Shown one piece after another: positions 15,001-21,000 of a stretch of 64,000 bases of DNA. The position numbers are program-made. Source of the DNA: Thermodesulfobacteriota bacterium (GTDB lineage: Bacteria > Desulfobacterota > Desulfobacteria > Desulfobacterales > C00003060); contig JAXHVD010000002.1 of NCBI GenBank assembly GCA_034189385.1, positions 1-64,000 of the forward strand. Direction: 5' to 3'. The stretch's first letter is position 1. The number at the start of each line of letters is the position of its first letter.

Positions 15001-18000
15001 AGGAGGAATGTATGAAACGTATAACCTCCAATCATGATGCCAACCTAAATGGTCCGAATGGCACGTCGCATCCGCTCATCTTCTCAGCCTATCCCCAGCG
15101 AGTTTACATGGAGAAACGCCTCAAATTCTGCCTGCCTGGCTCCTGACAGGTCTTTTTTGTCTACTTGTCGGGATTCCATCTGATTTCGACAACTCCGGCG
15201 CATACAACAACCAAGGGGGACGGTATGAAACAGATAAAGTCCATTCTTGTTCTGGTTTCCATTGCGCTAGTCGTGTGTTCACCTTCCTATGCCCTTGAGT
15301 GGGGTAAGACCTATGGGAACGTAGCTGGCCGTGATACAGTTTTCGCAATCCAACAGACATCGGGCGGTGGCTACGTCTTGGCAGGCTCAACCTACACCTC
15401 TGCTCCAAATGGTGAAGATGCTTGGATCCTGATGCTCAACGCTGATGGTACAGTAGCCTGGCAGAAGAGTTATGGTGGAGAAGGAACTCAATGGGCCCAG
15501 TCCATCCAGGAGACAACGCTTGGGGGCTATATTGTCGGGTGCACAAAAAGAGCAGTCTCCTCAAACGAAGGCTATGATCCATGGGCATTGAAGCTGGACA
15601 GTCAGGGAACGATTGAATGGAAGAAGAAGTATTTCGGAGGTGGTGACGATGACTACCTGAAGTCCATTCGCCAAACCCCAGATGGCGGATTCATTGCCGC
15701 AGCAGAGACCGAGTCTTTTGGTAATGGCGAAACCGATGTCTGGGTTTTGAAACTCAACCCTGACGGCAGCGTTGACTGGCAGAACACCTACGGGGGCATT
15801 TACAGAAACCCTGTTTACTCCATGGAGGTCACTGCGGACGGTGGCTATGTCATAGCGAGCGGCGCTAGCCAGTCGGGCGAACTCTGTTGGATCCTTAAGC
15901 TTCAAGCAGACGGGACGATCGAATGGCAGAAGCAATGCGAGGATGATGGATCCCAGGCTTTGATACGAGATATACGACAGACCCAAGACGGCGGTTACAT
16001 TGGCGCTGGCCAAATCCAGCACGTTGATGCTGTTACGTGGCAAGAAGCCTAAGTCGTCAAGTTCAGTCCATCTGGGACGGTTGAGTGGCAAAAGACATAT
16101 GGGGAGAGCACTACCACGGCGCGGTCTGTTGAGCAAATGCCAGACGGTGGCTTTTTTTTGTCAGGTTATAATGGCGATGTGTGGATATTGAGACTTGACT
16201 CTGCCGGAAATGTCGTCTGGTTTAAAAGCTATGGCGGGATTTACTCCGTTGGAGCGGTGGGCTCCGACGGCCTAGCAACAGACGATGGGTATATTGTGGC
16301 AGGTGAAACCGAGTGCTTTACGGCCAGTGCCTGTGAAGATATCTTGGTTCTTAAGGTCGATACAGACGGCGAGATCCCTTATTGCGTTGCGGCCAACACT
16401 GGCAATCCTGTTGGTATTGTCTCTTCAGTAGTGCTTAACGACACCCAAAAGAGCCCTGTGCCTTGCCCTGGGGTATCTGCTGACACGCCGCTAATGGCTT
16501 CCTACGACCCTACAACGCAATCGGCACAAATATGCCCCACGCAGCCGAATATCGTGCAGCTTGATCCGAATCATGGGGGCTACGGAACCAAAATAAAAGT
16601 CGAGGGTTCAGGATTTGCCGATCCTTGGTCGAAGATGGTCAACGCCACTGATGGCTACTACAGCGTTGTTTCCTTTTCAGGTCTCCCGGACACGCTAATC
16701 GCCACCCGTTACCCGAACTGGTCCTATACGCTGACAAAGACGAAATTCAAGTTTCTGTTTGTTGATTTGGACAACGACTATCTGCACGATGGAAACGAAC
16801 CTCTTGTGACGGTGGGCCAGCTCGACCTTGATTACTACGATATGCAGGTACATACAATCTGGTTCCATGACCTGGTAAGCGACGGGCTCTATGGAGAGGG
16901 AGACGAGATCTATCACGTAGAATCCAGTAATTCCGAAATCTTTAATCTAACTGACGAACCAGTGATATACACTTTAATCCCGGAATCCATTCCCGCCTCT
17001 CAACCCGGAAGTCCACAAAAAGTGAAGATTAAGGGGCTGAACTTCGGAGCCACCCAGGGCAGTAGCACAGTGCATATCGGCGGCAAGACCTGGTCTGCGG
17101 GACATCCTAAGATAAAGACTTGGGAGGACTACAAGATTAAGTTCAAGGTCCCTGTATACGAATCCCCCTTTCCAAAGTGGAAACAAATATGGGTAACTGT
17201 TAACGGCAAGCCCAGCAACGTGGTGTGGCTCAAGATAACAGCGCCTTGATTAAGCAGGGACATCATCCTCGGTATTGGGTCTTGGCGTAGTATGAGCTAA
17301 CAGTTTGAAATGTATAAATATATAGAGTGACTGGGGCGGCATCATATTTCCAGGGTGAGCGGTCCGAAGGGCAGACCGTATGCGCTCATCGTCTCAACCT
17401 ATCCCCAGCGAGTTCACGGTGCACATGCAGAAACATCTCAAAATGTGTCCACCACAGAAAAGGAGGTTTAAACTTACAATGGGGATGTTGAACAGAAAAG
17501 CGTGCTTGGTTTTGATGGCACTGGGGTTTTTGATCATTGCATCAGCGGGCCTTCTGCTGGCGCTAAATGACGATTATAATCGGCCGGCCCCGCTCATGGA
17601 TTATGTTCCTCAGGAAATGGGGATGTACGATGGCAGGTACGATCAACTGGGCGAAATGGACTGCCGGGCATGTCACGGAGACAGTCTTGCAGATAGACAT
17701 CACCACACTCCAAGGGTATTGGAGCAACAGACTTGCGGGACAGAGTATGGGGGCTGCCATGAAGCGGTGCCTGAACCGCCAGGCTTCCTCATGATTCGAG
17801 ACTGCACGACCAGTGGGTGCCATAGTTGGAATGATGTGCTGCTGGGCGACAACGGCTGGCACCATGCGACAGATCTATCAGAGCCTGAAAACTGCGTGAT
17901 ATGCCATGATCCCAATCTGGTCGGCCCGATTGGCCCCTTTATACCTTTTGCAGAATATCCACCTGTGGTGGTTACACCTACCCCCTTTAGTTGCGAGAAC

Positions 18001-21000
18001 TGCCACTGGGAACAAGAGGTGGTTCATAGCGGCTGGACCGAAGGTGATCCAGCCCCGCTAGAACCTGATGCAGGGCATCCCTCAACGTATGACCATGATG
18101 ATCCATGGGGTCATTTCTTAGGGTATTACGAATACGGCTTGGCGATACTTGGGAACTTTGACACGCATCACATGGATTTCATCCAGGGGAGTATGGCTTC
18201 AGACTGCTTAAAGTGCCACCCTCCTGATGGCCCCCCACCTTGGGACATGGACGACCCAGAATCGATCCGCCGTTGTGAGATTTGCCATAATGTGGCAAGC
18301 CTCCACACCATCTTTCCGCATGTGGGCGGCGATCCTTGTGGCCAGGACGATCATGCAGCCTTCGGCTGGGAGGCGACGGGTTTTCACACAGAAGAGAGTG
18401 GAGACATTCCCGTAAGCTATAGATCATTTGTTACGGGCGAGCATTGCTTTGGCTGTCATGGGGATAATGTTCCCTGCTATCCTGGTGAGCCTCCTCATTA
18501 CAAACCGGCCATTAGAATCAAACCACGGGGAATACATCCGGCAGTTGGCCAGCCCGGCCTTGTGGTAGAGCTAAGGGGCGAGTATTTTGGAGACGCCTAC
18601 GGAGAATACACCAGTGTTGAGGTCCAGAGGCGAACTGGCAGCACCCCGTGGATCGATATGCCCGTTTCCTCATGGTCTGATGACAGGGTATTGTTTAACG
18701 TCCCGGTGAATCCTTGGACTCTGGGCAATTACTGGGTGAGGATCCGCAACGAATACGGCGTGAGTAATCAGGTCGTATTCACGTTTACACGTGGATGAAT
18801 CCAACAAGATTCGGCCCCGAGTTCGGGGCCATGCCGGACCGTGATCTCCCTGATGTACACAGGGGCTTTCGGAGCAGCTCAGGACACCATTTCTGTCCCT
18901 GGCGCTGACGACGGCGTTTACATGGTCATAGATCTGGTTTCTGAAGAGGAAACTTTAACGGCCCTGAAGATCAAAAAGTGGGGAAGTTCCTTGGTGAAGT
19001 TTAAGGTCACCGACTTCTTCGTGGACTCCGGCTCCCGAAACTTCATCCAAGATGTAACGGAACCCACCGTTGATGCTTGCACTGAGATGGACCAGGGCCC
19101 CTATTCCATATACGTGACACGTGTATCTTACAGGGATGACGACAGCACTGGCAGCTTTACTGCAGCAGATACTATCCTTGAAGTCGAAAGGAGTATGCCT
19201 TGTTTCTTTGAACTAACGGACGAACCGGTGATTTACGCTGTAATCCCGGATTCCATTCCCGCCTCTCAACCCGGAAGTCCACAAAAAGTGAAGATTAAGG
19301 GGCTGAACCTCGGAACCACCCAGGGCAGTAGCTTGTTGCATATCGGCGGCAAGACCTGGTCTGTGGATCATCGGAAGATAAAGGTGTGGCAGGACGACAA
19401 GATCAAATTAAAGGTGACAAACTATAATCCTCCATTCCCCAAGTACAAGGACATATGGGTGACTGTGAACGGTCAAGAAAGCAATAAGATGGTACTTGAG
19501 ATAACGGCACCCTGATTCGGATCAATCACCTCTCATCATTTGTTGGGGCCATTCAGAAGGAATTGGTGGGCAGCAGCCAGTCGTCGTCAGTCGGGCCTCG
19601 ATCTTCGCCTGGCACTCGTGGTCAAAATGGGATTCTAAAGCACAATGCCATGGCTTGCTTCCCGTGCAATCTTCGCCCTGACACTTCAAGAACAGCGTGC
19701 TCCTTGAGATACTCTAAGAAATCGTGCTTCTGTTTCCGGTTGTATTTGTGAGCGCTGTTGACAGCGCTGTAGATGTTGCCCGAATAGAGGCCGATCTCAA
19801 AAAAGGTGAGGAGGCCCCCCAGGGCCTCATTGTCGTTGTCAAAGGCCTCCACTGCGGCAAAGATCATGGCGCCATTTAGAACGAAGGAGACCAAGGCGTC
19901 TCGATACCGTTGGCAATAGAGATGGCCCGCCCCCGGGATGATGGATAGCAGACCGGCAGTGGTGGGATTCTTTGTTTTTATGGATTCTTTTTTGTTGATT
20001 TCTTCAGACAACTCTTGGAGCCGGTATGCCTCTCTGTTTTTGGGACTTATTTCATCAAAGGTGGCCTGGGCCTTTTCCCACTCGTCCATCTCAAGGAAGA
20101 TCCATCCCCCCCGGTAGAGGGCTTCATCCCGCACATCTTGGTCCTGCGACACTTTCAGTAGGTCGTTCAATGTGCCAAGGGCCTCATCTGGCTGTCCAAG
20201 TTTGACATGGCACTCCGCTATCTTGAGATAGGATTTCAAAGAGAGCTCTGTGTCAGGATATTCTTGGATGACACGGCTAAAGGCCTCTATCGCCTCCTTG
20301 AATCGCTGGCCTTCAAAGTAGGCCAATCCGATCTTGTACCTTGCCGATTCCACGCGGGGCTCTTTAGGAAAAAAATGGATGAACCGTTCGTACTCACCGA
20401 TGGCCCTGTAGTACTCCCCTTGATGGAAATAGTCATCGGCAAACCCAAACTGATCATCGGCCTTCAGAACTACGGAGGTTTCAGCTAGGATGTCATATGG
20501 AGGTAGGGCACACAGAATCACTGCAAGGAGTATCATGATACCTTTCGCATGCCTCCTATTTCTCATGGCTCCACCAAAAATCGTTGTTTTCTACCGGGTC
20601 GTAGCACTTCTCTTCTCCCATGAGAAGAATACGCGAAGATCTTTTGATCTCGTCACGACCGCACCGAAGAAGACGATCACAAGTCATGATCCATCCCATG
20701 AAAAAGCCATGTTTTTCAAAAGCGTCCAGGCTGTACTGGGAGCAAGAGGGAACCATGGGGCACTGACTGCCGTCGACGGGGGAGATATACTCTCTATACA
20801 ACCCTACCAAGAACGCCGGCGTATGGGTTGCCTTGGCTGCCGGTCTATCAACGGCGGTCCCGCCCCCTGGTCTTTGCCATGGACCTTTCATGGGATCGCC
20901 CGGGGAGGCATTTCCAGGTGCGGCCCAGCCAGGAAGGAGCAAAAAGAGGAGAAACAAGGTGGTGCCGAGTCTTTTCATGGGTGAACATGGCTGGGTCTGC

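Follow-up and report, generated by a model that had tools for sequence, protein, structure and literature searches.

A secreted, OmcZ-like octahaem cytochrome precursor with a predicted selenocysteine between its first two Ig-like domains

Within the 64,000-nucleotide stretch of Thermodesulfobacteriota DNA analysed here (the window), two gene calls, g01439 and g01440, share a forward-strand reading frame that is interrupted by a TGA, which raises the question of whether this codon ends a gene or is translated and, if translated, what protein it completes. The first-pass annotation merged both calls into one secreted cytochrome with selenocysteine at the TGA, and the merger is borne out: 17479..19515 (+) is a single frame of 678 codons that ends with the TGA at 19513-19515 and has the TGA at 18796..18798 (U440) as its sole internal stop. 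The two paralogues cited as unbroken (C12:195996 and C12:202992) are indeed open, over 802 and 780 codons, respectively. Positions 18539-18869 are covered with 0 differences by a contig that comes from another sample of the study, which rules out a single assembly error as the source of the TGA; contigs from runs X3-X5 also span it, with no difference at 18796-18798 among the 40 of 185 difference rows listed, and are left uncounted. The gene upstream of the cytochrome gene is interrupted by an in-frame TAA, so this locus is not free of broken genes.

The start codon lies 12 nt downstream of a ribosome-binding site (AAGGAGG, 17460..17466, +) and opens a probable Sec-pathway signal peptide (residues 1-29; 17479..17565, +), recognised by eye from its basic start, hydrophobic stretch and LLA end. 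It is followed by the haem domain (17566..18468, +) and by a first Ig/IPT domain (about residues 338-440; 18490..18798, +), delimited by a structure model and a fold search, at the end of which the predicted selenocysteine codon is located. Beyond it, the same strand encodes a second Ig-like domain containing a covarying C452/C534 pair (18799..19215) and a C-terminal IPT/TIG tail (Pfam PF01833; 19216..19512) whose counterparts in two further secreted proteins encoded by the genome are 73-76% identical to it. Rfam yielded no match within 14500-20000.

The cytochrome had been described as six-haem; the six CxxCH motifs are present, but two non-canonical sites, CX6CH (residues 86-94) and CX4CH (109-115), had been overlooked. 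Their Cys and His residues are kept across the family, which brings the number of haem sites to eight, with haem presumably attached at these two as well. Also missed was the likeness to OmcZ of Geobacter sulfurreducens, which, together with the eight sites, changes the meaning of the finding. The family profile matches OmcZ (PDB 8D9M) over the haem domain and Ig1 with an E-value of 8.4e-20, and a single-protein search of the PDB returned two OmcZ entries (8D9M and 7LQ5; E-values of 0.002 and 0.006) as its sole matches. The three HH pairs (H74-75, H128-129 and H230-231) align with the OmcZ pairs and are each retained in 138-143 of 142-144 rows; LHTIF and HCFGCH are approximate, aligned counterparts of the conserved OmcZ regions 2 (L/IHNIE/Q) and 4 (DCXGCH); and, as in OmcZ, Ig-like domains lie C-terminal to the haem domain. 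Region 3 (GXGH[I/L]G) reads GWEATGFH here, with His303 found in 135 of 139 rows and not placed on the OmcZ His by the profile alignment, and at the position aligned to region 1 (DGHY[V/I]P) there is no His. OmcZ is absent from both fold-search lists, which are filled by Ig domains; the haem part of the model has a pLDDT of about 45-80, and, folded alone without an alignment, this domain reached a pLDDT of 32 and was unused for the fold search.

The TGA recurs among relatives, so the earlier statement that only two genomes carry it is superseded. Among 121 family matches in loci, there are 9 in-frame stops, of which 6, representing 4 distinct sequence types, are TGA at the predicted Sec site and 3 are singletons elsewhere. 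A TGA in a haem motif (L141), which has no hairpin, is taken as an error or a nonsense change. The four types are spread over three clades, a single-clade origin being rejected with p-AU of 2e-49, although the p-values are overstated because kin are not independent. The closest relative (G028:C18) had been reported at 57% identity, a value that applies around the site, with 55% overall. The noted one-residue offset exists only upstream of the stop (FTFTGDG-U against FTFTRG-U); downstream, both U residues precede the GPC cysteine by 12 residues. The L139 sequence type consists of one 1.2-kb contig, and its TGA is one base away from the GGA of a close relative. Short versions make up 23 of 121 database proteins, and in 15 of the 23 the last residue is the one just before the Sec site; the stop codon is visible for three of the 15, the other 12 being known as protein only. 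Five named genomes and the phylum to which they belong were also searched: no new broken copy came up, and the DNA of the truncated protein P0241 was not recovered. A search for longer proteins with Ig2 alone gave no hits.

A genuine stop, resulting either from a split gene or from repeated nonsense changes in decaying paralogues, would account for the two proteins annotated by gene callers, and it fits with TGA closing 527 of the 1357 long ORFs of the genome, with the broken neighbouring gene and with the three singleton stops. This reading is nevertheless very improbable. In all 4 of the sequence types with visible DNA, the codon is TGA and is in frame; the separately called C-terminal halves in the databases have no signal peptides, and their called starts lie downstream of a conserved P-x-x-G-P-[C/Y] stretch. 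The dN/dS ratios against the G028-type gene are 0.17 upstream and 0.22 downstream of the TGA, so by this comparison purifying selection acts on either side of the codon.

The genome encodes SelA, SelB, SelD (with an in-frame TGA of its own) and tRNA-Sec, and SelB is also encoded in the G028 genome. UGA can also be recoded to Cys through a second SelB. That the codon stands for Cys or Trp, whether through a variant genetic code or through a non-canonical tRNA, might seem compatible with the many homologues that have Cys in this position or next to it, but appears extremely improbable here, given that TGA is a common stop in this genome and also terminates this very gene, and that we detected one SelB above the cut-off and one TCA tRNA, of the Sec type, in an assembly that is about 90% complete and so could lack a further tRNA.

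Downstream of the UGA, a candidate SECIS hairpin (18813..18830, +) comprises a 7-bp stem starting at +15 and an AGUU loop starting 22 nt past the UGA, with a folding energy of -14.9 kcal/mol. The same hairpin, at the same distance and with one C-G to U-G change, is present in G028:C18, as originally described; it is preserved at synonymous positions even though dS between the genes exceeds 1, a further argument against a real stop. The hairpins of this and the G028-type gene satisfy all four bSECIS rules (loop of 3-9 nt, stem of 4-16 bp, G in the first two loop positions, spacing of 16-37 nt, and MFE <= -7.5; PMC13188914). An equally strong hairpin follows only 1 of 619 true TGA stops of the genome and 1 of 3000 sense TGC, TGT or TGG codons. 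For 23 selenoprotein genes of this genome, themselves predictions of our own choosing, the loops are at +17 to +28 and the energies range from -13.6 to -1.7, the SECIS window having been chosen with the target already known. Six candidates without an NCBIfam match (L182 and L202-L206) and L195 were left out of these controls; L179, equally without a match, was retained for its motif. The G028-type energy (-11.9) is reached by none of 71 non-TGA family members. The hairpins of L100 (-5.8) and L139 (-3.9), which comply with three of the rules and miss the energy threshold of -7.5, are equalled in 5 and 12 of the 71, respectively, and their 60-nt folds are not better than those of shuffled sequence. 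The hairpin framework derives partly from the codons of the P-x-x-G stretch, which would have provided a ready-made hairpin for Sec gain. It is highly probable that Sec440 is inserted by SelB bound to the hairpin. Taken together, the recurrence of the TGA, the truncated relatives and the SECIS calibrated on the genome's own selenoprotein genes support the proposed Sec at the Ig1/Ig2 linker, and the gene very likely specifies a secreted octahaem precursor of OmcZ-like type, composed of a signal peptide, an eight-haem domain and three Ig/IPT domains, with UGA read as Sec at the Ig1/Ig2 hinge.

This hinge is variable in cysteines. Among 145 rows, the U column holds Cys in 7 non-TGA rows and 40 rows have Cys one residue earlier; most have neither. 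At or beside the site, three G028 paralogues (L019, L028 and L059) have Cys, rather than the two previously counted. An unpaired Cys in the V410 column is found in 12 of 17 Sec-type or truncated rows compared to 10 of 143 others. Sec440 may thus form a redox-labile Se-S bond that replaces one of the hinge's interchangeable disulfides, a role that we propose tentatively, at somewhat under even probability. The bond would be formed, in most Sec-type members, with the Cys of the V410 column, otherwise without a mate, or with a Cys 2-4 residues past U; in this copy, position 410 is Val and no Cys directly follows U, so the selenol would be free or paired with C287, C333, C575 or another subunit. 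A catalytic Sec, on an Ig-domain loop that reaches towards a haem and carries out redox reactions of sulfur or selenium on the cell surface, is distinctly unlikely: in MccSep, Sec sits in a D-G-U loop reaching out of an Ig-like domain (PMC13510729), D-G likewise closes 9 of the 15 truncated proteins, and three conserved His are present beyond the eight matching OmcZ distal ligands, but this copy reads R-G-U, the U column holds neither Cys nor Sec in the majority of the family, the sequence is unlike that of the genome's own MccSep-family protein, and counterparts for all eight OmcZ distal His leave no obvious open haem.

OmcZ forms electrical nanowires and sheds a C-terminal region that includes Ig1 before polymerising; Sec440 would lie in the corresponding region. 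Failed Sec insertion would yield a 439-aa haem+Ig1 product without the tail, and the UGA might accordingly serve as a selenium-dependent switch at the domain boundary, fixing how much full-length precursor, which carries Ig2 and the shared IPT tail, is made relative to this product and thereby altering anchoring or readiness to polymerise. We regard such a purely regulatory purpose as unlikely. In its favour, the UGA is exactly at the end of Ig1, the Sec state occurs in three clades, the residues around U vary, the partner Cys is missing in this copy, the system reviewed in PMC7026636 inserts Sec with about 40% efficiency, and an OzpA-like S8 protease gene is nearby in only 3 of 101 loci (3 of 54 among those of at least 6 kb), the S8 genes of this genome being on other contigs. 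The truncated form, however, keeps Ig1, which OmcZ also removes, and so would not mimic OzpA cleavage, and the enrichment of unpaired Cys in Sec-type members suggests that the residue itself matters. A selenium-gated nanowire, in which OmcZ-type precursors repeatedly gained UGA-SECIS at the hinge of an inhibitory pro-region and selenium supply together with the Se-S bond determined form and filament assembly, is likewise a speculative scenario to which we assign a low probability.

The family appears to be a new selenoprotein family, being absent from the 119-family catalogue and from NCBIfam, in which no model matched P0001 at an E-value of 1e-4 and none matched P0002, P0154 or P0235. Within the sources searched, this would be the first link of selenocysteine to OmcZ-type cytochromes, with Sec placed where two domains of a secreted protein meet and not in a recognisable active site. 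The OmcZ-like family of uncultured sediment bacteria, both Desulfobacterales-type and others, is sizeable and often present in several copies, and gene callers cut its Sec members into two; given the Sec state in three separate clades, Sec gain is testable with natural variants having Cys, Sec or neither. The other haem-motif selenoproteins of the catalogue (PMC13188914, Table 1) are the GSU2204 family (NF041027), a beta-barrel, and the octahaem tetrathionate-reductase family, a different octahaem family; the genome's split-Soret-like selenoprotein shows no homology to this protein. MccSep/ExtKL (NF040886; PMC13510729) is likewise a multihaem c-type cytochrome with one Sec on an Ig-like part, and the D-G-U context is common in the OmcZ-like family too, but it has five haems with a His/Cys catalytic haem and is not homologous: NF040886 does not match P0001, and our family profile gives an E-value of about 1 against the separate MccSep-family copy of this genome. 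Unlike OmcZ, for which the parts of the OmcZ literature searched mention no Sec, the present protein has a predicted Sec, haem 2 and 3 motifs of the CX6CH and CX4CH type and a shifted haem-5 motif, lacks the DGHY region and a recognisable WFGN-type cleavage site, rarely has an adjacent protease gene and is distant in single-sequence comparison. Like OmcZ, it combines a signal peptide and an eight-haem N-terminal domain bearing three HH pairs and the LHxI and CxGCH regions with Ig-like C-terminal domains, of which there are three Ig/IPT domains here, two in Geobacter OmcZ and three in OmcZ2 of Ca. Methanoperedens (PMC9473688, PMC13748539).

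Read with the in-frame TGA at 18796-18798 as selenocysteine (Sec), positions 17479-19515 (+) of the window encode 678 residues, U440 among them, and close with a TGA; under table 11, the same stretch yields two ORFs. The frame stays open up to the final stop, as claimed in the first-pass annotation, which had joined the two called ORFs. Its further observations also hold: the two paralogues of the gene, both on contig C12, are unbroken, and the closest relative (G028:C18) has a TGA at this place. A ribosome-binding-type AAGGAGG lies 12 nt 5' of the ATG (+), and the N-terminus, judged by eye, resembles a signal peptide. 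A different sample of the same study yielded a contig of 331 bases that crosses the TGA with 0 differences. The feature is real, and the UGA at residue 440 is very probably, by prediction, a selenocysteine codon.

The genome encodes SelA, tRNA-Sec, SelD (with its own TGA inside) and one SelB above the cut-off. Past the target UGA lies a SECIS-type hairpin (18813-18830, +), formed by a 7-bp stem and an AGUU loop that begins 22 nt past the UGA and is identical to the loop in the glutaredoxin gene of the genome; the hairpin conforms to all four bSECIS constraints of PMC13188914. The 60-nt fold after the UGA has a z of -2.2, with 4 of 200 shuffles equally good. For calibration, all 71,496 start-preceded TGA of the genome were scanned, likely selenoprotein genes were chosen by motif, 29 were checked against NCBIfam, and 23 controls, themselves predictions, were kept (21 with an NCBIfam family match, SelD, and locus L179 on the motif alone). 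In these genes, the loop starts at +17 to +28 and the stem energy ranges from -13.6 to -1.7, compared to -14.9 for the target. With a scoring window that was set when the target was already known, the target's hairpin score was equalled at 1 true TGA stop out of 619 and at 1 sense codon in a sample of 3000.

Several other in-frame TGA codons came to light in this genome. The 1682-aa protein L195 (G000:C17:24762-29807, -), with a signal-like start and no NCBIfam match, has one within DGCGA-U-AEG; an 8-bp hairpin whose GGA loop lies at +20 comes next, and the protein is possibly another unlisted selenoprotein. A PhnD-like substrate-binding protein (L186, G000:C1:286103) and a Tat-exported split-Soret-like protein (L178, C63:20557) each have one with a SECIS-like hairpin.

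Within the genus, 14 of 36 genomes have a match to the target, and G028:C18 is the one other gene with a TGA in a full-length match; scans of the collection yielded 80 and 21 loci. The caveat of the first-pass annotation that only two genomes show the TGA no longer stands: among the 105 copies that span the hinge site, the linker between the first two Ig-like domains (75 distinct below 90% identity), four sequence types have it, namely the target (RG-U-IQQDS), the G028 type (DG-U-GCPCL; L070, L071 and L147 share the sequence and are counted once), L100 (GG-U-SCWLS) and L139 (DG-U-GGWCT). Homologues that lack the TGA often have a hairpin too because the stem is encoded by P-x-x-G codons. Among 71 such family members, none matches the hairpin energy of the G028 type (-11.9), whereas 5 match that of L100 (-5.8) and 12 that of L139 (-3.9); a rank test gives p 0.001, a value overstated by kinship. 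The 60-nt folds of L100 and L139 are no better than shuffles, and the L139 TGA is one base away from the GGA of L118. Given these within-family energies, shuffles and the one-base difference, the SECIS evidence is strong for two sequence types and weak for two. In the clade formed by the close paralogues L107, L112, L118, L121, L126 and L139, the haem domain is highly similar and the hinge sequence differs in each copy.

The 121 family matches contain nine in-frame stops, six of them the hinge TGA and three singletons elsewhere (2 TAG, 1 TGA). In L141 (1613-1615), on one short contig, a TGA with no hairpin stands where the CX4CH haem motif should have its second Cys, probably through error or nonsense mutation. 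Among 121 database proteins, 23 are short and 15 end exactly before the hinge site, 14 of these on Gly; the 15 comprise the target, the G028 and L100 types, and 12 known from protein sequence alone, with the stop codon unseen. Ten of 12 further cluster members also stop at the site, including one that breaks off one or two residues earlier. Conversely, of 11 matches to the downstream half, 8 were called as proteins of their own, 202-239 aa long and without a signal peptide, and two downstream-half proteins lie on a contig as long as that of a truncated N-half. P0275, from the cluster of a truncated protein, continues for 38 residues beyond the site; by eye, these resemble the usual downstream sequence read in a shifted frame. 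The G001 homologue (L062) enters an N-masked gap just 5' of the hinge. In a quick tree of 48 selected rows without the hinge columns (a larger tree was also made), Sec or truncated rows fall in three places and a single clade is rejected (p-AU 2.4e-49); independent gains, losses or paralogue exchange may alike account for this distribution.

Compared with the G028 type, the target has a dN/dS of 0.17 upstream of the TGA and 0.22 downstream of it (dS 1.7 and 1.3). The last domain of the target shares 73-76% identity with the tails of two further secreted proteins in the genome and is unlike the tail of its closest relatives, suggesting that it was swapped without loss of frame and that it is translated. 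The upstream gene for a secreted beta-propeller protein (15226-17249, +) has the same IPT tail and an in-frame TAA (16050-16052) without a hairpin after it, either a broken gene or an assembly error. Stretches of ~80 nt that are 77% identical (15051-15125 and 17361-17442) lie 5' of the two genes; they have no match in Rfam, and their 3' end occurs 6 more times elsewhere in the genome.

The 85-sequence family profile best matches PDB 8D9M, which is OmcZ (PMC9473688; E 8.4e-20, profile 40-465), followed by 7LQ5 (E 3.4e-11), also the sole, weak, PDB matches of the target sequence searched singly. The six CxxCH motifs noted at first pass are present, but two non-canonical sites, CX6CH and CX4CH, are to be added, and there are three HH pairs. 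Two of the four conserved OmcZ regions, as defined in PMC13748539, are present; region 1 is absent and the placement of region 3 is uncertain. Beyond eight likely distal ligands, His 200, 206 and 281 are conserved in 139-143 of 143-144 rows and may be alternative ligands or form a metal site. The AlphaFold model (pLDDT 77.9, pTM 0.62) contains three beta-sandwich domains, the first and third matching IPT/TIG folds (Z 10-14), and U440 lies in a low-confidence stretch that links the first two. OmcZ-like homology is well supported, and the target resembles an OmcZ precursor and probably functions as one; we do not class it as OmcZ proper because two OmcZ features are missing and its filaments would be hypothetical. 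In OmcZ, the S8 protease OzpA is described as removing the Ig-like region before polymerisation, so that Sec440, by analogy, would fall in the shed part. An S8 protease gene occurs in the flanks of 3 of 101 family loci with flanking DNA examined, and none adjoins the target; G001 and G006:C77 have family genes next to S8 proteases that carry the IPT tail. A probable hydrogenase small subunit gene, recognized by eye, follows the family gene in L059 (G028:C96) and L006 (G006:C30). Named relatives are uncultured Desulfobacterales, Desulfobacteria, Nitrospiraceae or 'bacterium'.

Across 145 rows, Cys residues covary in three pairs: C452/C534 (both Cys in 121 rows), the Q358 column with the column before U (36 rows), and the P359 column with V410 (86 rows). 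Sec is not simply the partner in the 358-column bond, because none of the 19 Sec or truncated rows listed has Cys there. An unpaired Cys at the V410 column is found in 12 of 17 Sec or truncated rows versus 10 of 143 others, and the three Sec types other than the target have Cys 2-4 residues past U. The simplest reading, which we infer tentatively from these patterns, is that Sec would form a redox-labile Se-S bond at the Ig1/Ig2 hinge; the target, with Val410 and no Cys near U440, is an exception that it does not explain. As Sec insertion is reported to be incomplete (about 40%, PMC7026636), a 439-aa product would be expected as well; that the UGA serves as a selenium-dependent switch setting the ratio of full-length precursor to this form would fit such a product and is, in our judgment, unlikely.

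No OmcZ-like family appears in the parts covered of Table 1 of PMC13188914 (119 families), whose haem-motif entries are ExtKL, GSU2204 and an octahaem tetrathionate-reductase family; members could also exist in BSepDB, in the data files for MccSep and in the supplementary tree for OmcZ2. NCBIfam (June 2026) likewise contains no model of such a family. Literature searches joining OmcZ and selenocysteine gave nothing on the subject by title and opening of the abstract, those on selenoprotein and cytochrome nanowire found nothing, and 'Seleno' is absent from the text searched of three OmcZ papers; selenocysteine, multihaem cytochrome and SECIS together led to MccSep alone. This genome, with 27 ORFs that contain 3 or more CxxCH, has its own MccSep/ExtKL-family selenoprotein (G000:C28:7739-9025, -). 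MccSep likewise has its Sec on an Ig-like domain, within a D-G-U loop (PMC13510729), but MccSep and the OmcZ-like family share no homology.
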